A DNA stretch of 32,000 nt from Candidatus Saccharimonadota bacterium (GTDB taxonomy: Bacteria > Patescibacteriota > Patescibacteriia > 2-12-FULL-60-25), in assembly GCA_963718585.1 (NCBI GenBank), contig OY970357.1:150001-182000 (forward strand), written 5' to 3'. Made by a program: the position numbers and the translations under genes. Below, piece after piece: positions 3,769 through 27,054 of the stretch; position 1 is the stretch's first letter, and the number at the start of each line of letters is the position of its first letter. The notes under the pieces are model-generated. The model ran no database searches, had not been told where the DNA came from, and saw nothing but the letters and a program-made list of their open reading frames with translations.

Positions 3769-4161
3769 ATGTATACCGATCCCATCAGTGATTTCCTGAC
3801 GCGCATCAAGAACGCGCAGGCCGCCCGACACGCCTCTCTGGAGGCGCCGTCTTCGCGGATGAAATATACGATCGCAAAGATCCTCGAGCGCGAAGGGTAT
3901 GTTGGCGCCGTTTCAGAACGGTCCGAAGGCGCGAAGAAGACCCTGACCGTCGGACTGAAGTATGACGGCAAGGACCCGGTCATCCGCTCGATCACCCGTG
4001 TCTCTACGCCTGGTCGTCGGGTCTATCGTGGCGCGAGCGAATTGCCTCGCGTCCTCTCCGACATCGGCATCGCCATCGTGTCCACGTCCGCTGGCGTCAT
4101 GACCAACAAAGACGCACGTCGCCGAAAGCTCGGAGGCGAAGTGCTGTGTGAAGTCTACTAA
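3769..4161 (+). CDS. rpsH: 30S ribosomal protein S8
   Basis: DPISDFLTRIKNAQ...GIAIVSTSAGVMT...GGEVLCEVY matches S8. Confidence 0.95.
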   Translation: MYTDPISDFLTRIKNAQAARHASLEAPSSRMKYTIAKILEREGYVGAVSERSEGAKKTLTVGLKYDGKDPVIRSITRVSTPGRRVYRGASELPRVLSDIGIAIVSTSAGVMTNKDARRRKLGGEVLCEVY

Positions 4162-4162
4162 T

Positions 4163-4717
4163 ATGTCACGTATCGGAAAGAAACCCATCCCGCTCGCGGC
4201 CGGCGTCGAAGCAACGATCACGCCGGACCTCGTTACGGTAAAAGGCCCGAAGGGCACGTTGACCGTCCCGATCCATCGGGATGTCACGGTCACGCTCGAA
4301 GGGGAGCCAAAGACCCTCGTCGTCCACGTCAAAGATGAGAACGACGGAACGCAACGCGGTCTCTGGGGGCTGACCCGTCAGCTCTTGGCCAACGCCGTCG
4401 ACGGTGTACAGAAGCCGTACGAGAAATCGCTCGAGTTCGTCGGCGTCGGTTTCCGTGTCGCTCTCGCGGGCCCGCAAAAGCTCACCATCGAAGTCGGATT
4501 CTCGCATCCGGTCGAATTCGCATTGCCCGAGGGGATCGAAGCGAAGGTCGATAAACAGATCCTGACCCTCTCCGGCATCGACAAACAGCTCGTCGGCGAG
4601 ATGGCCGCCCAGATCCGCCGGATCAAGCCCCCGGAACCCTATAAGGGAAAGGGGATCAAATATACCGATGAGGTGATCCGTCGCAAGGCTGGAAAAGCCG
4701 CGACTAAGGGCGCCTAA
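4163..4717 (+). CDS. rplF: 50S ribosomal protein L6
   Basis: MSRIGKKPIPL...VTVKGPKGTL...PEPYKGKGIKY matches L6. The start was moved to the ATG at 4163, just after the S8 stop. Confidence 0.95.
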   Translation: MSRIGKKPIPLAAGVEATITPDLVTVKGPKGTLTVPIHRDVTVTLEGEPKTLVVHVKDENDGTQRGLWGLTRQLLANAVDGVQKPYEKSLEFVGVGFRVALAGPQKLTIEVGFSHPVEFALPEGIEAKVDKQILTLSGIDKQLVGEMAAQIRRIKPPEPYKGKGIKYTDEVIRRKAGKAATKGA

Positions 4718-5089: not shown

Positions 5090-5854
5090 ATGAACGACGA
5101 GAACACACAAGCGACGAACGCGCCGGAAACGGCCGCTCCCGCACCGACGGATACGCCGGCCAAAGCACCGGAGAAGGCACCTGCCGATCAGGCGCCTGCG
5201 AAGGCACCAGAGAAGGCACCTGCGAAGGCGCCAACGTCAGGCCGTGGACCGATGATGGGCCGCGGTCGGGGTCCGGGCTCGGGTACGGGTCCGGGTGGGC
5301 GTGGCCGTGGACCGATGGGTCGCGGTGGACGCCGTCCGCCGGGGAAGAGACCGGACGTGCCGGCCGAGTCGGACTATGAAGAGAAGAATCTCGAGATCGC
5401 CCGCGTGACGCGTGTGACCAAGGGAGGAAAGCGGATGCGCTTTCGTGCGCTCACGGTCATCGGCAACCGTAAGGGCCGGGTCGGCTTCGGGCTCGCCAAG
5501 GGCGGGGACGTGGCGCTGGCGACCGGGAAAGCGACGGCGCAGGCCCGCAAGGCGCTGCTGACCGTTCCCATGGTCAATGAGACGATCCCGTTTCCGGTGA
5601 CGGCAAAGTTCGGGGCAGCGAAGATCTTGCTCAAGCCGGCTCCGAAAGGGACCGGGGTGCGCGCAGGTGGCGCGGTCCGTGTCGTATTGGAGCTCGCGGG
5701 GATCCCGAACGTCGTATCCAAGATCCTTGGGGCCAACAACAAAGTGAATAACGTCAAAGCGACGTTCGTAGCGCTGCGGAAGTTGAAGGCACCGGCATCG
5801 GACGAAAAGGAAACGAAGGAATCCAAGACCGAACCGACGGAAATCAAGAAATGA
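5090..5854 (+). CDS. rpsE: 30S ribosomal protein S5 with a ~95-aa low-complexity N-terminal extension
   Basis: The C-terminal 160 aa (LEIARVTRVTKGGKRMRFRALTVIGNRKGRVGFGLAKG...) is canonical S5. The ATG at 5090 lies 6 nt after the L18 stop in the same TAGacctctATG context seen at L15. Confidence 0.88.
   Translation: MNDENTQATNAPETAAPAPTDTPAKAPEKAPADQAPAKAPEKAPAKAPTSGRGPMMGRGRGPGSGTGPGGRGRGPMGRGGRRPPGKRPDVPAESDYEEKNLEIARVTRVTKGGKRMRFRALTVIGNRKGRVGFGLAKGGDVALATGKATAQARKALLTVPMVNETIPFPVTAKFGAAKILLKPAPKGTGVRAGGAVRVVLELAGIPNVVSKILGANNKVNNVKATFVALRKLKAPASDEKETKESKTEPTEIKK
5162..5326 (+). repeat. Imperfect direct DNA repeats inside the S5 N-terminal extension
   Basis: GCACC(G/A)GAGAAGGCACCTGC occurs twice (about 5165 and 5206). 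GGCCGTGGACCGATG occurs twice (about 5241 and 5303). They encode AKAPEKAP and GRGPM(M)GRG repeats. Confidence 0.6.
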
Positions 5855-5859
5855 CCTCT

Positions 5860-6351
5860 ATGACACTGACACTTCACTCACTCAAACCGGCCAAAGGTTC
5901 TCGGACCAAGAAGTTCCGCCTGGGACGCGGCGAAGGTTCCGGCCGTGGCAAGACCGCCGGCAAAGGGACCAAGGGACAGCGTGCCCGGTCAGGTGGTCGG
6001 AAAGGCCTCAAGCAGCTCGGGATCCGTCCGATGCTGTTGAGCATGCCGAAATCGCGCGGTTTCAAGAGCCGGTATCTGAAGACGGCGACCGTTCGTCTCG
6101 ACCAGGTCGAAAAGCTCTTCGATGCGGGAGCCCGCGTGGATCTCAAAGCATTGAAGGCTAAAGGTCTGATCCACCCGACGTCCACCACGGCAAAGCTCGT
6201 CGGCAAGGAGATCGGGAAGAAACTCACGTTCGTGAACGTGATGGCGTCCGCCGCTGCCACCGAAGCGGTGACCAAGGCTGGTGGCTCTTTTGAGCGCACC
6301 AAGGCCGTGGTCAAGACGACGAAAGTCAAGAAGGTGGCCAAGAAGAAGTAA
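5860..6351 (+). CDS. rplO: 50S ribosomal protein L15
   Basis: LHSLKPAKGSRTKKFRLGRGEGSGRGKTAGKGTKGQRARSG matches L15. I chose the ATG at 5860 (TGAcctctATG). An ATG at 5851 overlapping the S5 stop is also possible. Confidence 0.92.
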   Translation: MTLTLHSLKPAKGSRTKKFRLGRGEGSGRGKTAGKGTKGQRARSGGRKGLKQLGIRPMLLSMPKSRGFKSRYLKTATVRLDQVEKLFDAGARVDLKALKAKGLIHPTSTTAKLVGKEIGKKLTFVNVMASAAATEAVTKAGGSFERTKAVVKTTKVKKVAKKK

Positions 6352-6375
6352 TCGACGTACCCTACGCCCCATCCT

Positions 6376-7650
6376 ATGTGGGAAAAACTCCAAGAGATCT
6401 GGCGCGTGAAGGAGGTCCGTAACGGCCTACTTTTCGTGATCATCATGATGGTGCTGTTCCGGTTTGCGGCGCATGTGCCGCTCCCGGGCATCGACGTAGA
6501 AGCCCTCCATCGGTATTTCCAGGCCAATCAGGTCCTTGGACTCCTTAACCTCTTCTCTGGTGGAACGATCCGGAACTTCGCGATCGTCGCCCTCGGGGTC
6601 GCGCCGTTCATCACGTCATCCATCATCTTCCAGCTGTTGGCGATGATCATTCCGCGGCTTGAAGAGATCCAGAAGGAAGGGGAGCAGGGGCAGCAACGTA
6701 TCAATCAGTGGACGCGGCTTCTGACGGTCCCGTTGGCCGTTCTCCAATCTTTCGCGCTTATCCAGTTGCTGCGAGGTTCGCAGTTCCAGATCCTGAAGTA
6801 TACCGACTGGTTGCATATGACCACGTTGGTGATCACGGTGTCTGCTGGAACGGTCTTCCTGATGTGGATCGGAGAGCTGATCAGCGAAAAGAACGTCGGA
6901 AATGGTATTTCGCTCATGATCACGGCGGGGATCCTTGCCGGACTCCCGACGTCCTTGAGTCAGTTGGCGGTATCGTATGACGCATCGCAGCTTCCGACGT
7001 ATCTTCTGTATGGGGCGATCGCGATCGTGACGGTCGTGGCCGTTGTCTTCATCACTGAAGGACAGCGCAATGTCCCAATCCAGTATGCCCGACAGGTCCG
7101 TGGGTCCACGATGACCGGCGGCGTGGCGACACATCTGCCGATCCGCGTGAATATGGCCGGTGTGATCCCGATCATCTTCGCGATCTCGATCCTGCTCTTC
7201 CCGTCGGTCGTGGCGCAATTCTTCATCCACGCGCGGACGCCGTGGATCGCGAACGCCGCGCAATGGATCATCACGATCCTGCAGAATCAGATGGTCTACG
7301 GGGTCACGTATTTCCTCCTGGTCGTCGCATTCACTTTCTTCTACACGGCGGTCGTCTTCCATCCGGAACAGATCGCGGAGAATCTGCAGAAGCAAGGTGG
7401 CTTTATCCTCGGCATCCGTCCGGGCAAGCCGACGGCGGAGTATCTTCAGCGGATGATCAATCGCATCAACCTCACCGGTTCGCTCTTCCTTGGTGCGATC
7501 GCGGTCCTCCCGATCGTCGCGCAGGGGAGCGGAGGCAATCGGCTGCTCGCCATCGGCGGGACGTCGCTCCTGATCGTCGTTGCCGTGGTCATCGAAAGTG
7601 TGAAGGCGATCGAGGCGCAGTTGACCATGCGCGAGTACGACGCATACTAG
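6376..7650 (+). CDS. secY: Preprotein translocase subunit SecY
   Basis: It is 424 aa and multi-TM. GIDVEAL...LFSGGTIRNFAIVALGVAPFITSSIIFQLL...WIGELISEKNVGNGISL matches SecY. It lies after L15. Confidence 0.95.
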   Translation: MWEKLQEIWRVKEVRNGLLFVIIMMVLFRFAAHVPLPGIDVEALHRYFQANQVLGLLNLFSGGTIRNFAIVALGVAPFITSSIIFQLLAMIIPRLEEIQKEGEQGQQRINQWTRLLTVPLAVLQSFALIQLLRGSQFQILKYTDWLHMTTLVITVSAGTVFLMWIGELISEKNVGNGISLMITAGILAGLPTSLSQLAVSYDASQLPTYLLYGAIAIVTVVAVVFITEGQRNVPIQYARQVRGSTMTGGVATHLPIRVNMAGVIPIIFAISILLFPSVVAQFFIHARTPWIANAAQWIITILQNQMVYGVTYFLLVVAFTFFYTAVVFHPEQIAENLQKQGGFILGIRPGKPTAEYLQRMINRINLTGSLFLGAIAVLPIVAQGSGGNRLLAIGGTSLLIVVAVVIESVKAIEAQLTMREYDAY

Positions 7651-13559: not shown

Positions 13560-14636
13560 ATGCCAAAACGGCGTGGGGGTTCCACTACCGCGGGCGGCCC
13601 GAACAAGCCGCTCGCGTTGTTCGCGACCTTCCTCGTCGTCGTCGGGATCGTGGCAGTCGCCCTCGTCTCAAGCATGAAGACAGGGTCTCCGGGATCGACG
13701 ACATCGGTTTTGAGCGCCTCAAGTACGGTCGCCATGACATCGAGCACCGCAGCAATCGCGCTGGTCAATGACAGTGCGGTGACACTTTTGCATTTCGATG
13801 GTACGAGCGAGCGGTTGAAGCCACAGCAATTCACACAGGCCTACGGCGCCGGTCCGTTGCCGGTCGAAGGAGTCCAAGTCGCGAACGGATCAGAAGCCTA
13901 TTTTCACGCCCCCGGCGAAACGGTGGGAGGTATCCCATCGCCAAACGGTCAGTATCTTGCGCACCTCGAGAGCGCGAAATCCGACGGCGCCGGGGTGATC
14001 CAAGTGTCCAAGGACGGAGAAACGCCCCAGAGTGTCGTTTTGCGGAGCGGTCGGACCGCGCTTACCGATCCTTTTGTCCAAGGGTGGTTCGATGATGACA
14101 TGATGATCGTGACCGCGCATGCGACCTCGACGCGATGGGTCTATGCCGTCAGCCGGACCGGGACCATCGAGCCCATTGTGACGTTACCGGACAATGTGAC
14201 CTTCCTCGCCGGTCGGGGAGGGATGTTGTGGTATGCGACGGCAACGCTAGGCGAAGGACTCGAGTCGCCACCGACCGGACCATCGGAGATCCATCGGGTC
14301 ACCCTGCGGCCTGCGCAGGACGTGCGGGTCGCCGATGACGCGACGCATGCGATCAACATGGTCGTGCCAGGGACCGACGGGTGGTTCGCCTATACGACGG
14401 ATGATGGCCGATCCTATGTCGAACGTGTCGATGGTTCGGGAGCAATGCAGGGGGAGCGGATCTCTCTTGGATCGGAACGTCCGTTACTGTTCCTTTCGGC
14501 GGATCGTCTCGTCCTTCGTGACAATTTTTCACTGGTCTTGAAGGACCTTCGGACCGGACAAGTCACGACGCTCGGTGCGCTTCCGGAAGGGCAGGTCGAC
14601 GCGTTCTACCTCGACGCGTCGTCGTCGACACCGTAA
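13560..14636 (+). CDS. Hypothetical membrane-anchored protein (N-terminal TM, extracytoplasmic domain, possibly beta-propeller-like)
   Basis: A basic N-terminus is followed by LALFATFLVVVGIVAVALV (TM) and then a Ser/Thr-rich linker. SPNGQYLAH resembles a TolB/PD40-type repeat. The family assignment is not secure. Confidence 0.65.
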   Translation: MPKRRGGSTTAGGPNKPLALFATFLVVVGIVAVALVSSMKTGSPGSTTSVLSASSTVAMTSSTAAIALVNDSAVTLLHFDGTSERLKPQQFTQAYGAGPLPVEGVQVANGSEAYFHAPGETVGGIPSPNGQYLAHLESAKSDGAGVIQVSKDGETPQSVVLRSGRTALTDPFVQGWFDDDMMIVTAHATSTRWVYAVSRTGTIEPIVTLPDNVTFLAGRGGMLWYATATLGEGLESPPTGPSEIHRVTLRPAQDVRVADDATHAINMVVPGTDGWFAYTTDDGRSYVERVDGSGAMQGERISLGSERPLLFLSADRLVLRDNFSLVLKDLRTGQVTTLGALPEGQVDAFYLDASSSTP

Positions 14637-19675: not shown

Positions 19676-20818
19676 ATGATCATCGGACTTGATCTCCGTT
19701 GCCTCCCGACAGACGGCAGTCCGGGAGCGGGCATTGCGCATGCGGCGCGGGCGATGGCGCGAGCACTTGTCTCCCGTCCGGATCGCAGTGTTCGTTTCGT
19801 CATCTATCTTCCGCATGGAGCTGCATGGGGTGTTGCGTCATCGCATCATGTCGAGGTGGTCCGTCTCCCCAATGCAGGTGGTTCGTCTATCCGCATCGCG
19901 CTCTCACACGTTCCATGTGATGCGCTTATCGTCCTTTCCGGTGCGGTCCCGCCTCGGATCGATGTTCCCGCGATCCCATGGATCCACGATGTCGCGATCT
20001 TCGACCATCCGGAGTGGTTCCCGCAGGGTCCTTTGCGTCGCGCGTTGACGACACATCTTTTCAAGCAGGGGATCCATCAGGCGCCGGCATTGTTGACCGT
20101 GTCGCAGGCGACCAAGGATGACGTCATCCGCTTGTTCAATGTGGGATCTTCGCGGATCCACGTCACGCATGAGGGAGGGGATACGGTCCTTGCAGAGCTA
20201 CAAGGCACCGCCCTCCGAGCCGCAAAACGACAGGCACGGATACGCGTCGCGGAACGCGGCGTGAGCCAGCCGTATGTTCTCGTGCTCGGTACCGTCGAAC
20301 CGCGCAAGAACATACCGTTCCTCATCTCCGCATGGTCCCATGCGATGCGGATATCCGATCGTCCAGCGGACTTGGTGATCGCTGGCCGGGACGGTTGGAA
20401 GCTCGGTCCGGCGCGTCGCGCCATGCGTCATGCGGCGTATCCGGAAGAAGGAGGGCCGCGTTTGCATCGGATCGAAGCCGTGACAGATGAGGATCGTCGG
20501 GACTTGCTCCTCGGGGCCTCTGTGGTCACGATCCCGTCCTTGACCGAAGGGTTCGGATTGGTCGCGCTCGAAGCCATGCAGGCGGAGACCGCGGTCATCG
20601 CCTCCGACGTCGGCGCGCATCCAGAAGTGGTCGGTGATGCCGGACTTCTCTTATCTCCCGTGGCCGCTGAAGCCTGGACAGGTGCGCTCCATGGACTCCT
20701 TGTTGACGATCGAACACGGCAGCATATGGCCGAACAAGGGAAGGCGCGGAGCCAGGGAATGACCTGGGAGCGCGCGGCGATGACTGCGATGGAGACCTTG
20801 ACGGGATCGCAAAGCTAG
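19676..20818 (+). CDS. Glycosyltransferase family 4 (GT-B, retaining type)
   Basis: The C-terminal motif PSLTEGFGLVALEAMQAETAVIASDVGAHPEVVGDAG is typical of the GT4/Glycos_transf_1 family. Confidence 0.8.
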   Translation: MIIGLDLRCLPTDGSPGAGIAHAARAMARALVSRPDRSVRFVIYLPHGAAWGVASSHHVEVVRLPNAGGSSIRIALSHVPCDALIVLSGAVPPRIDVPAIPWIHDVAIFDHPEWFPQGPLRRALTTHLFKQGIHQAPALLTVSQATKDDVIRLFNVGSSRIHVTHEGGDTVLAELQGTALRAAKRQARIRVAERGVSQPYVLVLGTVEPRKNIPFLISAWSHAMRISDRPADLVIAGRDGWKLGPARRAMRHAAYPEEGGPRLHRIEAVTDEDRRDLLLGASVVTIPSLTEGFGLVALEAMQAETAVIASDVGAHPEVVGDAGLLLSPVAAEAWTGALHGLLVDDRTRQHMAEQGKARSQGMTWERAAMTAMETLTGSQS

Positions 20819-20848: not shown

Positions 20849-20924
20849 CGCGGGGTAGAGCAGATGGCAGCTCGCCAGGCCCATAACCTGGAGGTCGTGG
20901 GTTCAAGTCCCACCCCCGCAACCA
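20849..20924 (+). tRNA. Initiator tRNA-fMet (anticodon CAT), CCA encoded
   Basis: It folds by hand as a 76-nt cloverleaf. The acceptor CGCGGGG/CCCCGCA gives a C1xA72 mismatch. It also has an A11:U24 pair and the T-arm GTGGG-TTCAAGT-CCCAC. The ends are identical to the E. coli tRNAfMet acceptor. Confidence 0.93.
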
Positions 20925-20957
20925 AAACAATGCACCCGGAAACGGGTGTTTTGTTTT
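20925..20957 (+). terminator. Rho-independent terminator directly after tRNA-fMet
   Basis: CACCCG-gaaa-CGGGTG followed by TTTTGTTTT. The flanking AAAACAA/TTGTTTT can extend the stem. Confidence 0.75.
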
Positions 20958-21116
20958 GGTTCGTGAGACCGTTGGGACTTGAACTTGAAGGGGCTTGGGG
21001 AAACAAGCCATGCATGTTTCCCCACCGTATCCGGGGAGGGTCCATGGGAGGGTGGAAACCCTCTCATGGGAGTCTGGCGGAACCGGACGACGTGAAAATC
21101 ACACCCCCCGCAACCA
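20958..21116 (+). other. tRNA-fMet-linked structured module 1, ending in a copy of the tRNA 3' end (candidate sRNA or att-type scar)
   Basis: It contains GTGAGACCGT (20963-20972), a pseudoknot-capable hairpin (20992-21023), GGAGGGTC (21035-21042) and an 11-bp hairpin (21042-21069). It ends in CACACCCCCCGCAACCA (21100-21116). Confidence 0.4.
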
Positions 21117-21148
21117 GATCAAGAATCCCCGAAAGGGGATTCTTGATC
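21117..21148 (+). other. Perfect 14-bp stem-loop (GATCAAGAATCCCC-gaaa-GGGGATTCTTGATC) immediately after the tRNA-3'-end copy
   Basis: Read directly. It has a GNRA-type loop and only TT follows, so it is an atypical terminator. Confidence 0.5.
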
Positions 21149-21183
21149 TTCAGGGCTGGAGCAAAGGGCTTTGTATGGAGGTC

Positions 21184-21212
21184 TTGCCTGATGGTTCATG
21201 ATAGGCTATATT
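21184..21212 (+). promoter_or_regulatory. Candidate promoter TTGCCT-N17-TATATT for the second CAT tRNA
   Basis: The hexamers and 17-nt spacer were read directly. It lies about 68 nt upstream of the tRNA 5' end. Confidence 0.55.
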
Positions 21213-21280
21213 CTCGCCACGTTTTGTGCGGACATTCCTGATCCCTTCCGAGGTCCGTCGCCGTCGTATCTTGTACGCAG

Positions 21281-21357
21281 GTCGGGGTAGCTCAGTTGGT
21301 TAGAGCGCGGGACTCATAAGCCCGAGGTCGCCGGTTCGATCCCGGCCCCCGATACCA
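21281..21357 (+). tRNA. tRNA with anticodon CAT, elongator type (tRNA-Met, or tRNA-Ile2 if C34 is lysidinylated), CCA encoded
   Basis: It is a 77-nt cloverleaf with acceptor GTCGGGG/CCCCGAT (G1:U72), D-arm GCTC-AGTTGGTTA-GAGC, anticodon loop CTCATAA and T-arm GCCGG-TTCGATC-CCGGC. There is an A31/G39 mismatch at the loop-proximal pair. Confidence 0.9.
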
Positions 21358-21360
21358 GAT

Positions 21361-21394
21361 AAAACGACCTGAGACATCTCGGGTCGTTTTGTTT
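21361..21394 (+). terminator. Rho-independent terminator directly after the CAT tRNA
   Basis: A 13-bp stem AAAACGACCTGAG-acat-CTCGGGTCGTTTT followed by GTTTG. Confidence 0.8.
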
Positions 21395-21524
21395 GTTGCT
21401 GACTGGGATCGAATGTAGGGAAGGGTGAGACCGTGAGGTTTCACATGCCGAGGAGGGTCTGCGGGAACCCGAAGGTTCCCGCAAAGGAGCGGAGCGACGC
21501 GTGAGATCCCGGCCCCCGATATCA
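21395..21524 (+). other. tRNA-linked structured module 2, ending in a copy of the tRNA 3' end (candidate sRNA or att-type scar)
   Basis: It contains GTGAGACCGTGAGG (21425-21438), GGAGGGTC (21452-21459) and a 10-bp hairpin (21460-21483). It ends in GATCCCGGCCCCCGATATCA (21505-21524), which matches tRNA positions 21338-21357 at 19 of 20 nt. Confidence 0.4.
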
Positions 21525-21527
21525 GAC

Positions 21528-21554
21528 AAAAAAAGACCCCTTAGGGGTCTTTTT
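21528..21554. terminator. Bidirectional terminator (A7-AGACCCC-tta-GGGGTCT-T5) serving module 2 (+) and tRNA-Leu (-)
   Basis: Read directly. It lies 3 nt from the tRNA-Leu 3' end. Confidence 0.8.
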
Positions 21555-21768: not shown

Positions 21769-22548
21769 ATGGGACGTATCATTTCCGTCGTAAATCAAAA
21801 GGGGGGCGTCGGCAAGACGACGACGGCCGTCAATCTTGGCGCCTATCTCGCGGAAGCCGGGAAATTCGTATTGGTCGTTGACTTGGATCCGCAGGCGAAC
21901 GCGACGTCCGGTCTGGGGATCGACCATCGGAACCTCGAACGTGGGGTGTACGAAGCGATCCTCGGCGAGGTCAACATCCGCAACATCGTTCAACCGACCG
22001 CGCATGAGACCCTTCGCGTCGCGCCTGCGACGACCGGTCTCGCCGGTCTCAACATCGAATTGGTGGAACAGCAACGACGCGAGTTCAAACTCTACGATGC
22101 GCTTCTCGAAGTCCGCAATGACTACGATTACATCTTGATCGATTGTCCGCCCACGCTCGGACTCATCACCCTCAATGGGATCGTGGCCGCAGACGAGATA
22201 TTGATCCCGGTCCAAGCCGAGTACTATGCCCTGGAAGGGCTTGGTCAGTTACTTGAGACCGTCCAACTCGTGAAAGATCGCATCCGTCCGGAGGTCGATG
22301 TCCTCGGCGCGGTCCTTACGATGTACGACAATCGTACGAAACTCTCCGACGATGTCATGCAGGAACTGTATAAGTATTTTCCAAACAGCATCTTCCGTTC
22401 TGTGATCCCGCGAAGCGTTCGCCTCGCAGAGGCACCGTCTTTTGGGCGATCCATCGTCATGTTCGATGCAACATCCAAGGGCGCCAAAGCGTACGAGCGG
22501 TTGGCGCGCGAGATCATTGATACGGAGTATCTCCGCATGGCGGTCTGA
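21769..22548 (+). CDS. parA: Chromosome partitioning ATPase ParA/Soj
   Basis: Evidence is the deviant Walker A NQKGGVGKTTT, DLDPQANAT, and DYILIDCPP. The start is the ATG at 21769, since the track's upstream extension overlaps tRNA-Leu. Confidence 0.9.
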   Translation: MGRIISVVNQKGGVGKTTTAVNLGAYLAEAGKFVLVVDLDPQANATSGLGIDHRNLERGVYEAILGEVNIRNIVQPTAHETLRVAPATTGLAGLNIELVEQQRREFKLYDALLEVRNDYDYILIDCPPTLGLITLNGIVAADEILIPVQAEYYALEGLGQLLETVQLVKDRIRPEVDVLGAVLTMYDNRTKLSDDVMQELYKYFPNSIFRSVIPRSVRLAEAPSFGRSIVMFDATSKGAKAYERLAREIIDTEYLRMAV

Positions 22549-22551
22549 TCT

Positions 22552-23463
22552 ATGGCGATCATGGGAGGACGGCAATCGGGATTGGGACGCGGCCTCGGCG
22601 CGCTCATCCCACCGAAACCGCAGGCGGTTCCTGCGCCGGCGGTACCACCCCCTCCGGGGCATCCGGTCGAGGAAGAGGGCGTTCGACCGAATACGAACCA
22701 GATCCACCAGATCCCGGTCGACACGATCGATCCGAATCCGCATCAGCCACGGACGCATTTTGATCGGACGCAGTTGGAAGACCTGATCGGGTCCATTCAG
22801 GCGCACGGGGTGATGCAACCGATCGTCGTGACGCCGAAAGGGGACGGGCGCTATGAACTCATTGCGGGGGAGCGGCGGTTGCGTGCGAGTAAGATCGCCG
22901 GGCTCGAGACCATCCCTGCGATCGTCCGGACCGCGACCGATCAACAGAAGCTGGAACTTGCACTTATCGAGAACATCCAGCGACAGAATCTTGATCCGAT
23001 CGAGGAGGCACATGCGTATCTGCGTCTGCAGAATGAATTCAACCTGACACAGGACGAGGTCGGCTTACGGGTCGGAAAAAGCCGTCCGCAGGTCGCGAAT
23101 ATCATTCGTCTGCTCCAGCTGCCGCAGGAGATCCAGATCGCCTTGGCAGAAGGGAAGATCTCTCACTCCAACGCGCGGACCCTGCTGTCGCTCCCGACCG
23201 ATGATGAACGTATGGCCATGTTCCAGATGATGCTTGATGGGAATTTCACGGTCCGGCAGACCGAGGCCCGGATCCCGAAGCGTCGGGGCCGCCATGTGCA
23301 TGCAACGGATCCGAATCTCGCGCAGACGGAGGATGACCTTCGACGGGCCCTGGGCACCAAGGTCGCCATCAAGCGGGACGCGCGCGGAGAAGGAGAGGTC
23401 CGGATCACGTTCTTGAACGAAGAAGACCTCCAGAACATCGTGAAACGGATCACGGAGGAGTAG
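22552..23463 (+). CDS. parB: Chromosome partitioning protein ParB/Spo0J
   Basis: GLGRGLGALIP, IDPNPHQPR, QPIVV, the GERR motif (IAGERRLRASKIAG), and ENIQRQNLDPIEEA match ParB. Confidence 0.92.
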   Translation: MAIMGGRQSGLGRGLGALIPPKPQAVPAPAVPPPPGHPVEEEGVRPNTNQIHQIPVDTIDPNPHQPRTHFDRTQLEDLIGSIQAHGVMQPIVVTPKGDGRYELIAGERRLRASKIAGLETIPAIVRTATDQQKLELALIENIQRQNLDPIEEAHAYLRLQNEFNLTQDEVGLRVGKSRPQVANIIRLLQLPQEIQIALAEGKISHSNARTLLSLPTDDERMAMFQMMLDGNFTVRQTEARIPKRRGRHVHATDPNLAQTEDDLRRALGTKVAIKRDARGEGEVRITFLNEEDLQNIVKRITEE

Positions 23464-23509: not shown

Positions 23510-25010
23510 ATTTCCGATTGTTCTCCTTTTTGAGTCCAGGGATCACGCCTTTGATCCACGTGGCAAGTCCCGCGCGGGCGAATTGGCGGATCTTGGAGCG
23601 CGCATGACGGGTCTTCACGAAATGGAGCCAATCCGGGTTCGGTCCTTTGCGGTTCCGGTCCGTGACGATCTCTACGACATCGCCGGACTTGAGTGGGCGG
23701 TCCAACGGGGCCATGTCCTCATTTACCTTGGCCGCCGTACAGGTGTTGCCGATATCCGTATGGATCGCGTATGCGAAATCAACGGGGGTGGAATCTTCCG
23801 GAAGGTCGATGACCTCTCCTTGAGGGGTGAAGACAAAGATCCGGTCTTTGAAGATGTCGATCTTGATCTCTTCAAGCGAACGGAGATACTGCCGACGGTC
23901 TGAGATCTCTCGTTGGATGTCCGCTAATTGGGCCATCCAGTCGATCTTCGGGGCATCATGATCGGCTTTGAATTTCCGTTCATCATACGACCAGTGTGCG
24001 GCGATGCCGAATTCAGCCGCTTCGTGCATCTCCGGCGTCCGGATCTGGAATTCGACGATCTCGCCATCATCACAAAAGACCGTGGTATGCAGGGAACGGT
24101 AGCCATTCGGTTTCGGTTGGGCGATGTAGTCCTTGATCCGGCCTTTGAGCGGAGTCCAGCGTCCATGGATCACGCCGAGTGCGGCGTAGCAATCCGCGAT
24201 CGTGGGCACGAGGACCCGGACGGCGATGATGTCGTAGATCCGCGCGATGCTGCGGTCGTTCTTCAGGAGTTTTTTGTACAGTGAATAGAGATGTTTGGTC
24301 CGACCGTGGACGTCCGCAAACGTAATGCCGGTCTTTTCAAGATCCGTGCGGATCGAGGACATGATCTGTTCCAGGTAGGCGTCTTTGCCGGTCGTCGCAT
24401 TCGCCGCCAGTGTCTTGGTCCATTCGTACTCTTTGGGGAGGACATAGCGGAACGCGGCATCTTCCAAGCGGCCCTTCATCTCACCCATCCCCAGTCGATT
24501 GGCGATCGGGGCATAGATATCCAAGCTTTCCAGTGCGATGCGATATTGTTTTTTTGGAGGGATGGCGTCCAGGGTCTCGAGGTTGTGCAGGCGGTCGGCG
24601 AATTTGATGATGATGACGCGGACATCTTCGGCGATCGCGATGAACATCTTCCGCAGGTTCTCGATGTACCGTTCCATCCCGCGATATTTGATCTTCCCCA
24701 GCTTGGTGATCCCCGCGACGAGTGTCGTGACCTCTTCACCGAATACCTCTCGGATATCTTCGAGCGTGCGGGTCGTGTCTTCCGGTACATCGTGCAGGAT
24801 GGATGCGATGATGATGACGGGCGGGAGCCGCATCTCGGCCAGCGTCATGGCCGCGGCCAACGGATGGATGATATAGGGTTCGCCGCTCGCGCGTTTTTGT
24901 TTCGCATGGGCCTCAGCCGCAAAATCGTAGGCCTTTTGGATCTGCGCCAAATCCGCCTGCGGGTCGTAGGCGCGGACGAGATCCACCAGTTGATCGATGG
25001 TTTGCGGCAT
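23508..25010 (-). CDS. rel: Bifunctional-type (p)ppGpp synthetase/hydrolase Rel/SpoT, short form (HD + synthetase + TGS, no distal C-terminal domains)
   Basis: Evidence is the HD domain (LHDVPEDT), the synthetase region (YRSLHTTV, EFQIRT) and TGS (IFVFTPQGEVIDLPEDSTPVDFAYAIH). The start was taken at the ATG at 25010 (cctATG). A TTG at 25052 would lie inside the predicted promoter. Confidence 0.9.
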   Translation of the reverse strand: MPQTIDQLVDLVRAYDPQADLAQIQKAYDFAAEAHAKQKRASGEPYIIHPLAAAMTLAEMRLPPVIIIASILHDVPEDTTRTLEDIREVFGEEVTTLVAGITKLGKIKYRGMERYIENLRKMFIAIAEDVRVIIIKFADRLHNLETLDAIPPKKQYRIALESLDIYAPIANRLGMGEMKGRLEDAAFRYVLPKEYEWTKTLAANATTGKDAYLEQIMSSIRTDLEKTGITFADVHGRTKHLYSLYKKLLKNDRSIARIYDIIAVRVLVPTIADCYAALGVIHGRWTPLKGRIKDYIAQPKPNGYRSLHTTVFCDDGEIVEFQIRTPEMHEAAEFGIAAHWSYDERKFKADHDAPKIDWMAQLADIQREISDRRQYLRSLEEIKIDIFKDRIFVFTPQGEVIDLPEDSTPVDFAYAIHTDIGNTCTAAKVNEDMAPLDRPLKSGDVVEIVTDRNRKGPNPDWLHFVKTRHARSKIRQFARAGLATWIKGVIPGLKKENNRK

Positions 25011-25023
25011 AGGCAGCTTTTCT

Positions 25024-25052
25024 ATGCTAAGCCAGTCTTGCGAGACTGGCAA
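25024..25052 (-). promoter_or_regulatory. Candidate promoter TTGCCA-N17-TAGCAT for rel (minus strand)
   Basis: The hexamers and 17-nt spacer were read on the reverse complement. The -10 ends 13 nt before the ATG at 25010. Confidence 0.5.
25031..25050. promoter_or_regulatory. Perfect 20-bp palindrome GCCAGTCTTGCGAGACTGGC (candidate operator) inside the rel promoter spacer/-35
   Basis: The 8-bp arms plus the self-complementary TGCG/CGCA centre were read directly. It lies in the divergent rel / coiled-coil gene intergenic region. Confidence 0.45.
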
Positions 25053-25095
25053 TGGGCTTTCGGTCAGGGCTGAATTTTGCTACGCTGAGAGCCAT

Positions 25096-27054
25096 ATGAG
25101 CGCCCCTGCAGAAGCCCGACGGCCGGTCGAGACGCCGGAACGGCCCTCCTCCGATCCAGAGGCGGCGATCGATCGTGCGCTGGACAGCGGAGTCTTCGAG
25201 GCCGTGAAAGACGTCATGCAGTCCGAACGCGACGCTGAGATACAGGTGTTATCGTCATACGCAGAGATCGCGAATGATCTGGATGCACCTGACCTTACAG
25301 CCGCTGCACAACAGGAGGCGCAGGCCGCATCCGCCGAGATGCAGGCGGCGTGGGAGGCGGCGGCGCAAAAACTCACGATCGTATTCGGGGAGACGATGAT
25401 GCCGTCAGCCAGCGAAGCTCCGGAGACGACGAAGGCTACATGGGACCAGGCGGCGCAGGCGTATGAAGAAAGTTCAACACTCACGCCCGAACCATCGCAG
25501 GGAGAGGATCTCGCGAAGCTCGAAAAAGGGTGGGATGATCTGGCGAAGCGTCCGACGACCGCAGAAGCATCTTTGACGGCGCAAGAGCGTGTCGCGGAGA
25601 AAGAGCAGCAGATCGAGGACCGTCTACGTCAGATCCAGGGCATGATCTACGAGACAGCGGGTCAGGACATGCCAGCGGCGGAACGGACCGCTGCATTCCA
25701 GAAGATCGAGGCGCTTCAACGCCAGAATGTCGGTGATTGGGACGAGGTCAGGGATCTTTCCGCAAATACCGAACAGGGACTGGTCGCGCGGAACGAGGCG
25801 TTGAACGACGTACAATCGAATGTGACGGACATGTTGAAGTCGTTAGAGCGATTGACGTTCAACCCGGCGCTTGATGACGCGTCGCGTACGCAGGCGCACG
25901 AAGCCATCATGGGCAAGATGCAGGACAATCTTGCGCACTGGGATCTGATCAATAAGACAAAGAGTGGGAAGGGTCCTTCGGAATCTGAAGGATTGAAGCT
26001 GAAGATCGAACAGGGGATCGAGGCCGCCGGGTCGGCTGCAGAGGCGTTCATCGTCAGCGTGGAGCGTGGAGAGATGGCCCCGGGAACGAAAGAGCCGGAA
26101 GCGGTCCGTTTGGCGCGTGAGCGCGCGGGATTGGATGGGTTTGCTGGACGGATCAATGCCGCGGGCGAAGAGATGCAGCAACGGTATCCAGGGCCGGTAG
26201 AGCTCATGGCCGCGCAAAGCGCATTAGACGGAGCACGGCTCCGGCTGGAAGAGGCAAAGCAGACTGGAGCGGATGCGGGGCAGTTGCAGGCTTTGGAGGG
26301 GGAGGTCGCGAACGCACAGGCCGCCGCAGAAGCTGCGGAAGCTGCGCATCCGGACGTCGATATGCATCGCATCATCGACGTCGGGGTTCCCTTCGAAGAG
26401 GCGCTGGAGCAAGGCGAGGCGGCGCGTGAAGAGAAAGAGGAGCATCCGGAGCTTGCGGAACGGCGAAAACAGATAGGTGAGATCGCGGAAGAAATGACTC
26501 AAGCCGAGGAAAAAGGAGATGGCGCCGGGTACGAAGATGCGATCAGGAGCGCGATCGACGCGAAGCAGGGCTTGGCAGACGAACTGCGGAAATTGCCGGC
26601 ACCGACCGAAGCGCAACGTGAGGAATTGAAGCGATTGGAAGTCGAGATCGCGCAGCATGAAAAGGAGCTCGATCTTCGGGAAGGAAAGAACGAACTCTCT
26701 TCTCTGGAAGATCAAAAGCACGAGCTGGAGGTAAAGCTTGCGGAACTGGAAGCATCCGGTGCTTCTCCCGAAGAGATCGCTGCCGTCAAACAGGAGCTGG
26801 AAGATGTCGACGCGAAGCTCAAGGCGAAGCGCTCCTCTGTCGCGGATCTGGAGACCGTCCAAGGAAAGTATGATGATGTGTTGAGATCATACGGTGGTGT
26901 GATGGACTACAGCCCGGCCGGCCGGGCAAAACAAAAGAACGAATCAGGTGTCGCCGGGAAGATCGCGGATACGATCGTCGATGGGATCCATGATCCGTCC
27001 GTACTCGCGTTCGCGTTGCTGGATAAACTCGGCGTTGGCAAAGCCCGGCATTGA
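25096..27054 (+). CDS. Hypothetical acidic Glu/Ala-rich coiled-coil protein, 652 aa, no signal peptide or TM seen
   Basis: It is a long ORF with gene-like G/C third-position bias. The start is the ATG at 25096 (catATG). Heptad-like E/A/Q/L/K-rich stretches run throughout. No family was recognised. Confidence 0.7.
   Translation: MSAPAEARRPVETPERPSSDPEAAIDRALDSGVFEAVKDVMQSERDAEIQVLSSYAEIANDLDAPDLTAAAQQEAQAASAEMQAAWEAAAQKLTIVFGETMMPSASEAPETTKATWDQAAQAYEESSTLTPEPSQGEDLAKLEKGWDDLAKRPTTAEASLTAQERVAEKEQQIEDRLRQIQGMIYETAGQDMPAAERTAAFQKIEALQRQNVGDWDEVRDLSANTEQGLVARNEALNDVQSNVTDMLKSLERLTFNPALDDASRTQAHEAIMGKMQDNLAHWDLINKTKSGKGPSESEGLKLKIEQGIEAAGSAAEAFIVSVERGEMAPGTKEPEAVRLARERAGLDGFAGRINAAGEEMQQRYPGPVELMAAQSALDGARLRLEEAKQTGADAGQLQALEGEVANAQAAAEAAEAAHPDVDMHRIIDVGVPFEEALEQGEAAREEKEEHPELAERRKQIGEIAEEMTQAEEKGDGAGYEDAIRSAIDAKQGLADELRKLPAPTEAQREELKRLEVEIAQHEKELDLREGKNELSSLEDQKHELEVKLAELEASGASPEEIAAVKQELEDVDAKLKAKRSSVADLETVQGKYDDVLRSYGGVMDYSPAGRAKQKNESGVAGKIADTIVDGIHDPSVLAFALLDKLGVGKARH

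Follow-up and report, generated by a model that had tools for sequence, protein, structure and literature searches.

Why do two neighbouring methionine tRNA genes each carry, a short distance downstream, a second copy of their own 3′ end, separated from the gene by the same ordered set of hairpins and purine tracts? The question is raised by a stretch of 32,000 nucleotides from contig OY970357.1 (positions 150,001 to 182,000; assembly GCA_963718585.1, Candidatus Saccharimonadota bacterium), which we call the window and number from its first base. The two units are referred to here as module 1 and module 2. An initial annotation had proposed them as a candidate novel family of structured RNAs or cis elements. 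We tentatively favour another reading, to which we give somewhat less than an even chance: the modules would be small, protein-less cassettes that some Patescibacteria carry inserted at the T loop of tRNA genes. This reading is compatible with an RNA reading and both can be true, as a cassette spread by recombination may also be expressed with its tRNA.

The elements follow the same order after each tRNA-Met. A terminator is followed by a segment that repeats the tRNA's own T arm in inverted orientation, a hairpin (P2), the motif CCGRGGAGGGTC and the hairpin P3. Next come a purine-rich linker with the end GACG(N)CGTGA, a copy of tRNA positions 57–76 and finally a second hairpin. The insert measures ~160–190 bp including one repeat and is protein-less, with 138–172 nt between the repeats in the four copies described below. 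The tail-to-tail spacing of the tRNA 3′ copies is 192 nt in unit 1 and 167 nt in unit 2. No open reading frame (ORF) was found inside the units and no gene remnant in any copy. The features are given below with their strand in brackets.

20849..20924 (+): tRNA-Met(CAT) no. 1, carrying module 1; ARAGORN, Rfam tRNA 59.6 bits
20905..20924 (+): left repeat of module 1, tRNA positions 57–76 (AAGTCCCACCCCCGCAACCA), the functional 3′ end; repeat comparison
20924..20957 (+): terminator hairpin directly 3′ of tRNA 1, apex of an imperfect palindrome (20899–20986) with the inverted T-arm copy
20973..20984 (+): inverted T-arm copy of module 1 (TGGGACTTGAAC), 12/12 complementary to 20901–20912
20996..21024 (+): hairpin P2 of module 1 (TGGGGAAACAAGC cat GCATGTTTCCCCA); inverted repeat, folds and covariance-model alignment
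21031..21042 (+): conserved purine motif of module 1, CCGGGGAGGGTC; direct repeat
21042..21069 (+): hairpin P3 of module 1, 11 bp, perfect, loop TGGAAA; folds and covariance model
21072..21088 (+): extra hairpin present in module 1 only (GTCTGG cggaa CCGGAC); fold
21086..21095 (+): right end of module 1, GACGACGTGA, then the junction of GTGA with A57; alignment
21096..21116 (+): downstream copy of tRNA 1 positions 57–76, decayed (AAATCACACCCCCCGCAACCA), with 2 substitutions and 1 inserted base
21116..21149 (+): 15-bp perfect hairpin with a GAAA loop and without a T tract, 3′ of the module 1 tail; inverted repeat
21281..21357 (+): tRNA-Met(CAT) no. 2, carrying module 2; ARAGORN and Rfam tRNA
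21338..21357 (+): left repeat of module 2, tRNA positions 57–76 (GATCCCGGCCCCCGATACCA); repeat comparison
21361..21390 (+): terminator hairpin after tRNA 2, palindrome apex with the inverted T-arm copy; inverted repeat
21403..21413 (+): inverted T-arm copy of module 2 (CTGGGATCGAA), in which GGGATCGAA is 9/9 complementary to TTCGATCCC
21415..21424 (+): purine tract GTAGGGAAGG upstream of P2 in module 2; AGGGRAKGG in 3/4 copies
21425..21444 (+): hairpin P2 of module 2 (GTGAGACC gtga GGTTTCAC), GNRA-type loop, one G.T pair
21448..21459 (+): conserved purine motif of module 2, CCGAGGAGGGTC; direct repeat
21460..21483 (+): hairpin P3 of module 2, 10 bp, perfect, loop CGAA; apex ACCCGAAGGT identical in loci L097 and L105
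21484..21504 (+): purine-rich linker ending GACGCGTGA, right end of module 2; alignment
21505..21524 (+): downstream copy of tRNA 2 positions 57–76, CCA changed to TCA, 93% over 27 nt
21530..21554 (strand not assigned): bidirectional terminator shared with the convergent tRNA-Leu; native tRNA-Met 3′ context in relatives L095 and L109
21558..21644 (−): tRNA-Leu(CAA), convergent neighbour; ARAGORN; the tRNA type that bears the module in L097/L140

The three tRNA genes listed (Met, Met, Leu) are the only ones in the window. The first tRNA-Met is of the initiator type, with a C1:A72 mismatch.

A re-check of the sequence located in both modules all the elements listed by the initial annotation. The octamer GGAGGGTC is indeed identical in the two, at 21035–21042 and 21452–21459, and these are its only occurrences in the window. 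The count by itself is at chance level (2 found, 1.6 expected; two or more in 48/100 shuffles), and the observation therefore draws its weight from the order of the elements and from homologues found elsewhere. Since this order recurs in other genomes, it is not due to chance. P3 keeps its position and has a similar length (11 versus 10 bp) with a different sequence, as had been described, and true compensatory changes are present. The purine-rich stretch likewise precedes the tRNA-derived tail, as GACGACGTGA in module 1 and as GACGCGTGA (21496–21504) in module 2. The extent needed correction: the right-hand part was placed properly, but each unit begins ~60–80 nt further upstream, with the inverted T arm and P2.

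Relatives were gathered by synteny of ScpA, ScpB, peptidase S11, a GT4 glycosyltransferase and tRNA-fMet, and every tRNA in the gathered loci was screened for a second copy of its own 3′ end. The screen gave two further independent modules, in L097 and L105, so that four distinct copies are known in total. L097 comes from the same organism as L140–142 (GCA_018829575.1). Its module lies 3′ of tRNA-Leu(CAA) and ends in GCGACGATGTGA followed at the junction by GATTCTCTCCTTGCCCACCA, and a tRNA-Met starts two bases on. The L105 module lies 3′ of tRNA-fMet, ends in ACGACGTGA followed by AAGTCCCACCCCCGCAACCA, and has an inverted T-arm copy (GGGGGTGGGACTTGAACCCA) that matches at 20/20 positions. A profile hidden Markov model built from the four copies was run over all fetched Patescibacteria loci, and the only extra matches were truncated duplicates of the L097 module (L096 and L143). 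The nhmmer E-values are 1e-28 to 1e-33 for the profile's own sequences and 7e-07 for the truncated L096 copy, which lies outside the profile. A covariance model made from module 2, L097 and L105 places module 1 correctly at 20991–21101 in a structurally consistent alignment. Its score there is 12.5 bits; over 48 kb this corresponds to E = 0.069 and over 255 kb to E = 0.36, values that are rough for a short-calibrated covariance model. Module 1, with its low score and correct placement, is therefore a distant family member.

Neither nhmmer nor the covariance model found further full copies in the fetched Patescibacteria loci, where the remaining matches are weak and lie in coding regions. A pattern scan of genome contigs with 22 specified bases, which was too specific, gave 5 matches, all coding and without the hairpin. 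The distribution is patchy, with modules in 3 of ~25 distinct lineages that have tRNA-bearing syntenic loci and nowhere else in 255 kb. Relatives at ~60% GT4 identity (L090, L091) have the tRNA and the terminator without the module.

The insertion reading rests first on the right junction, which is identical in 4/4 copies: GTGA is joined to R57, inside the T loop, where the tRNA itself reads TTC at positions 54–56. The similarity of the repeats stops at CCA (TTC followed by GATC, AAGT or GATT); in module 2, seven more bases are alike. One core is joined to three tRNAs (fMet, Met and Leu), and its inverted and direct tRNA-derived parts always match the adjacent tRNA. Exact inverted T-arm matches are 20, 12 and 9 nt long at module-bearing tRNAs versus at most 8 nt at ~50 other tRNAs. 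A 20-nt repeat that starts in the T loop, together with an intact tRNA, is characteristic of tRNA-targeting integrative elements and is found in 4/4 copies. The inner joins are also uniform in all copies, from the inverted T arm to the purine tract to P2, and are therefore not independent deletion scars.

The right-hand side of the modules appears from sequence comparison to be native context. In L095 and L109, tRNA-Met, its terminator and tRNA-Leu show the same layout as the module 2 tail, the bidirectional terminator and the convergent tRNA-Leu do here, and the module 2 tail matches tRNA-Met (21338–21364) at 25/27 positions. The L097 tail abuts tRNA-Met, much as tRNA-Leu precedes tRNA-Met by 25 nt in L118. 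The hairpin at 21116–21149 is similar to the native tRNA-fMet terminators of relatives (ATCAAAATGCCCCGAAAGGGG... in L097), and is therefore probably the original terminator of tRNA 1, with its U tract lost. In the window, decay is seen in the right-hand tRNA copies; the left-hand ones belong to working tRNAs, and module 1 has an antisense segment that is still perfectly complementary to its working tRNA.

Three signs of T-loop insertion had been overlooked by the initial annotation, namely the inverted T-arm copy, P2, and the exact junction of GTGA with positions 57–76; with these, the downstream tail is best read as the displaced original 3′ end. The proposal of a novel structured RNA family holds in that homologues occur in other Patescibacteria and no described RNA family matches, but it missed these traces of DNA insertion. 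The recombinase-related DNA alternative that was also offered is at least as well supported as a pure RNA reading.

In the cassette reading, the inserted unit would comprise, from left to right, replacement positions 57–76, terminator, inverted T arm, purine tract, P2, (C)GRGGAGGGTY, P3 and a purine linker ending GACG..GTGA. The terminator would be omitted where a downstream tRNA needs co-transcription. The cassette would join between tRNA positions 56 and 57, and its 3′ end would replace the original one; the gene would therefore stay intact, and the displaced 3′ end and terminator would make up the downstream 20-nt repeat. Insertion may occur by conservative site-specific recombination at the T arm with a recombinase supplied in trans. 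The cassette would then approximate a self-contained phage-type attachment site (attP), and the enzyme would be comparable to T-loop-targeting tyrosine integrases. The replacement 3′ end, terminator and inverted T arm would fold to a long hairpin that recreates a duplex T-arm site. The predicted empty site is ...CCCCCGATACCA joined directly to GACAAAAAAAGACCCC, and the predicted circle junction reads ...GACGCGTGA, then GATCCCGGCCCCCGATACCA, then GATAAAACGACC. As the cassette would lie inside tRNA transcription units, it would be transcribed with the tRNA. A fuller version, in which a mobile protein-less cassette of <200 bp enters the T loop through its hairpin and a host recombinase, as CTX phage does at dif, repairs the 3′ end and yields a functional GGAGG/GGA RNA from the tRNA promoter, is unlikely.

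The core shows structural constraint. In the four-copy, model-based alignment, 98.3% of the P2/P3 cells are standard pairs and 11/15 pairs are changed on both sides. None of 500 shuffles reaches the observed values, and sliding the partners drops pairing to 30–53%. RNAalifold recovers P2 and P3, and also pairs the antisense T-arm segment with the tail copy in a long-range helix. On the tRNA strand there are three G.U pairs (P2 of module 2, P3 of L097, P3 of L105) and zero A.C pairs. The P2 loops are GNRA-type (GTGA in module 2, GATA in L105), and the P3 loop CGAA and apex ACCCGAAGGT are identical in three copies (module 2, L097 and L105). Single-sequence folds of whole modules have z = −3.0 to −4.6. 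A competing structure is a long imperfect palindrome, to which the 3′ half of the tRNA, the terminator and the antisense segment all contribute. Its fold has z = −10.9 in L105, −7.9 in module 1 (20895–20990, −52.5 kcal mol−1) and −7.2 in module 2 (21330–21420, −47.6 kcal mol−1).

The cores of module 2 and L097 are 73% identical, and 82–84% from ACATGC to GTGA. The nucleotide identity between the two genomes is 58% for GT4, 70% for ParA, 61% for ParB and 88–92% for the tRNAs. All pairs of copies are 52–73% identical and are not recent duplicates of each other. Neutral sequence would not be alignable at such a distance, and the core has therefore been selected or was transferred after the lineages split. 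The P2/P3 hairpins and the GGAGG/GGA tracts would be kept by selection either as RNA or as a single-strand DNA structure. A functional RNA would be expected to have such covarying hairpins, G.U pairs and GNRA-type loops, together with conserved single-stranded GGAGG/GGA tracts.

No promoter-like site was found between the terminators and the modules, in agreement with the earlier statement that no sigma-70-like site lies between the tRNA terminator and either module. The suggestion that any expression may come from read-through is plausible, as is co-transcription, in the light of L140, where tRNA-Leu and tRNA-Met flank the module. There is a good promoter (TTGCCA-17-TATAGT) upstream of tRNA-Leu there, and no promoter or terminator was found between tRNA-Leu, module and tRNA-Met; the module would therefore be transcribed at this locus as an internal spacer. 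The L097/L140 copy is without the strong post-tRNA terminator that the other three copies carry. Co-transcription of the module with its tRNA operon is plausible from this operon layout, and the modules are probably expressed as structured RNA.

These data also suit a resident RNA without mobility, an explanation that we regard as possible though on balance unlikely. The module would then be a non-mobile structured non-coding RNA of ~110–150 nt, a small RNA derived from the spacer or trailer of tRNA operons. A closing helix of the antisense segment (or GGAGG) with the tRNA-derived 3′ strand would enclose P2 and P3. Single-stranded GGAGG/GGA tracts could serve as a binding site for a protein or for the anti-Shine-Dalgarno sequence, and the tRNA-like 3′ end could give processing and stability. 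The P2/P3 covariation, the G.U pairs without A.C, the GNRA-type P2 loops and recurrent CGAA loop, the stability of the module folds and a core conserved above the flanking genes all speak for such an RNA, as do a 14-bp closing helix in L105, obligatory co-transcription in L140 and the lack of a conserved ORF (the indels between copies are not multiples of three). However, a resident RNA leaves unexplained why the tail is an exact copy of the adjacent tRNA's positions 57–76, why the GTGA junction is constant and why the right-hand context is native. The tail has decayed (TCA; indel) while the antisense segment matches the real tRNA, so that the closing helix is broken in module 1. The patchy distribution and the lack of a detectable promoter also count against this account.

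If the modules were instead decay remnants of larger prophages or genomic islands at tRNA genes, functionless and with only the attachment (att) arms left, the direct repeats would have a ready explanation. tRNA 3′-end direct repeats from the T loop are the classical signature of tyrosine integrases (Ms6, PMC1762012), and tRNA gene fragments from integrated elements are common (PMC9897764). We consider this improbable. The same inner boundaries and a similar size (138–172 nt) are seen at four loci in three lineages, a pattern that independent deletions would not produce, and conservation above the protein-coding neighbours, covarying hairpins and the absence of any gene remnant do not fit a scar. 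A tandem tRNA duplicate remodelled to a tRNA-like pseudogene or RNA, with the D arm turned into a hairpin and the anticodon loop lost, has full-length analogues: tRNA-fMet copies in L088 (6867–6948) and L112 (807–880) have the anticodon arm replaced by TCCGCC-nnn-GGCGGA. Module 1 itself can form a cloverleaf-like four-way junction (z = −4.1) and resembles tRNA 1 upstream of the T loop; its extra hairpin occupies the place of the tRNA anticodon arm, and direct comparison shows ACCGGACGACGTG to be similar to CCTGGAGGTCGTG of tRNA 1. The degenerate tRNA-like fold that the initial annotation had thought conceivable therefore applies to module 1, but to module 1 only. The suggested echo of the tRNA 5′ end in GGAGGGTC is weak, as the motif also precedes the tRNA-Leu tail in L097 and is therefore independent of the acceptor stem of the attached tRNA. 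Against duplication, the 5′ three-quarters are common to the Met, Leu and fMet copies and unlike the adjacent tRNA, the Rfam tRNA model matches no module, and the inverted T arm and P2 have no place in such a scheme; we hold it to be rather unlikely. Chance likeness of two GC-rich intergenic regions, with which the octamer count alone is consistent, has next to no probability in view of homologous modules elsewhere, the blind placement of module 1 and tRNA-derived repeats far above background.

Several points weigh against the cassette reading. No recombinase, transposase or reverse transcriptase was found among the genes of the 32-kb window or inside any copy, and an integrase gene and cargo between the repeats are absent in all copies. 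A larger, gene-carrying relative with the same ends was not found. Only four distinct copies are known, and they are old (52–73% identical), which means that there is no sign of recent movement. To move to a new tRNA, a cassette would have to acquire a matching 3′ end in an extra step, for example by gene conversion or capture. In RNA, covarying hairpins, G.U pairs on the tRNA strand and GNRA-type loops are more usual than in att-site arms, and the covariation itself comes from only four sequences in an alignment fitted to the structure.

tRNA genes are the classic landing sites of large integrating elements. Williams (2002) is said to have distinguished sublocation classes of integration within tRNA genes. 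CTX phage and integrative mobile elements exploiting Xer (IMEX) are integrase-less and use a hairpin attP with the host XerCD at dif. The modules resemble their attP in having inverted target-like copies that could fold to a duplex site, a direct–inverted–direct layout and no recombinase of their own. They differ in a T-arm target in place of dif and in being at least 10-fold smaller, and the parallel would serve as a lead only. Mycobacteriophage Ms6 targets the T loop of a tRNA gene (PMC1762012). The attL/attR sites of such tyrosine integrases share with the modules the repeat that starts inside the T loop, the element-borne 3′ end and the displaced fragment downstream, whereas the modules have an interior of 138–172 nt with no gene, covarying hairpins, purine tracts and an inverted T-arm copy. 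Miniature inverted-repeat transposable elements (MITEs) and the IS200/IS605-derived palindrome-associated transposable elements (PATEs) are likewise tiny, non-coding and hairpin-rich with a defined short target. In contrast, the modules take their inverted repeats from the local tRNA, have a direct repeat of 20 nt and are seen only beside tRNAs. A MITE would have constant terminal inverted repeats and a short target-site duplication, whereas the inverted repeats here depend on which tRNA is adjacent and the duplicated segment has 20 nt. As regards PATEs, which have subterminal hairpins, insert 3′ of a short target and make no target duplication, the modules show hairpins and a constant position after TTC; they also show a flanking 20-nt repeat, and no guide-to-cleavage-site complementarity was found by eye.

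Functional RNAs are also released from tRNA precursors, as in the E. coli leuZ 3′ external transcribed spacer and in dicistronic tRNA–small RNA genes. Likeness to these lies in the trailer or spacer position, the lack of an own promoter and probably release by tRNA processing; the modules differ by the tRNA 3′ copy, the antisense copy and a multi-hairpin core common to different loci and genomes. Guide RNAs that home to tRNAs are another case, namely the TnpB right-end RNA and the delocalised CRISPR RNA of type V-K CRISPR transposons. They too have a structured scaffold followed by a 3′ segment identical to the tRNA target, whereas the modules have no effector gene, show no sequence or Rfam similarity, and leave the full target in the filled site, which would be self-targeting. 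TnpB-type homing was set aside on this ground too, as a filled site would remain a target. Integrated elements leave tRNA gene fragments behind (PMC9897764). tRNA-like RNAs (the transfer-messenger RNA domain, YrlA, pseudo-tRNAs; PMC9897764) resemble the modules in a 3′ end with the T-stem 3′ strand, acceptor 3′ strand and CCA. The modules differ in having GTGA in place of the T arm's 5′ half, and no model of the tRNA clan matches them. A cmscan against Rfam clan CL00001 at E ≤ 10 found the three real tRNAs and nothing over either module, with the same outcome for L105 and L097. The sole tRNA-clan model listed nearby, Tymo_tRNA-like, is below threshold (E 0.2–3) and lies over genuine tRNA genes.

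Across Rfam 15 the modules gave only scattered sub-threshold matches that differ per copy (sraL 22 bits, Clostridiales-2 22 bits, miRNA models on the palindrome). The module 2 core has no BLAST match in phages or plasmids, and pattern scans of viral contigs gave none or chance matches, as screened by a hairpin test. No description of such an element was found in the literature searched. From these comparisons the modules appear to belong to no described family. Three more candidates were discarded. A small ORF after the GGAGG motif has no conserved start codon, and the indels are not multiples of three. A parS site (the ParB site beside parAB) shows only half-site resemblance by eye. For a TnpB/IscB guide RNA, a retron, an integron attC or an IS110 bridge RNA, the defining protein gene or core motif is absent.

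The tRNA cluster is flanked by a GT4 glycosyltransferase gene (19676–20818) and by parA–parB (21769–23463). An exact look-up of the ParA protein gave no record. The wider neighbours are housekeeping genes only: SecY, methionine aminopeptidase, two class-II aminoacyl-tRNA synthetases, ScpA/B, RelA/SpoT, TopA, DprA, Pth and EngA. Homologues of the GT4 protein carry the source labels Candidatus Uhrbacteria or Patescibacteria, and the host of the modules is Uhrbacteria-like. Two window ORFs, at 24997–27054 (+, 685 amino acids) and 13560–14636 (+, 358 amino acids), have no Pfam match, and the position of the latter is kept in Logan contig L001 of the same species. The Logan short-read contigs L001, L150, L151 and L152, from this species and its closest relatives, stop ~70–120 nt past the GT4 gene, near the position of the window's tRNA-fMet, and the contigs of GT4 homologues P0002 and P0006 likewise end around there. 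Short repeats common to tRNA loci are a possible cause of these breaks.

Other unusual arrangements were seen beside tRNAs of the gathered loci. L101 (~4140–4248, −) has a partial module after tRNA-Met, made up of a terminator, an antisense segment resembling the T arm (GGGAGTTGAAC), AAGGAAGGG, a hairpin resembling P2 (GTCGGGAAACttagGTTTCCCGAT) and AGTGAAAAC; the part from GGAGG to P3 and the tRNA tail copy are absent. In L090, a gene for an IS200-like Y1 transposase (PF01797; 10670–11140) lies a few kb from the module-free tRNA cluster and has no similarity to the module by nhmmer. The tRNA-fMet-like copy in L088 lies 600 nt downstream of the real gene (6188–6263), with which it shares an identical acceptor stem and T arm. 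Its D loop is replaced by TCCGCCgcGGCGGA and its anticodon arm by TCCGCCataGGCGGA, which gives a cloverleaf without an anticodon loop (z = −3.9). An uncalled ORF of ~150 amino acids with a lipoprotein-like signal (…LIAGAGCGKG…) is located between the two (6356–6808, +), and may be a cargo-carrying version of a tRNA-flanked cassette. The L112 copy (−) lies 124 nt after tRNA-fMet (931–1006), and its anticodon arm is replaced by TCCGCCttaGGCGGA, whose stem is the same as that of the real tRNA's terminator. ARAGORN labels it tRNA-Stop (tta), a trap for annotation. That two distant lineages show this arm replacement suggests that the copies are maintained. In L117, a group I intron (5769–5954; Rfam Intron_gpI, 72.9 bits) splits the anticodon loop of a tRNA-fMet (5729–6036) that ARAGORN does not call. 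The same locus has a tRNA-Met 5′ fragment (GGCGGGGTAGCTC) followed by a CCCCCC...GGGGGG hairpin and a second hairpin (5511–5590), just upstream of the real tRNA-Met.

The tails and tRNA-like copies described here can mislead tRNA annotation, and may add to the number of short-read contigs that end at tRNA genes. If the cassette reading is true, the unit would mark the lower size limit of tRNA-targeting integrating elements, and it would suggest that in the reduced Patescibacteria genomes recombination at T arms is carried out in trans, possibly by a host-encoded enzyme. Should the modules be a functional RNA instead, or also, they would represent a new family of RNAs carried along by the tRNA operons of a phylum that has been little studied.

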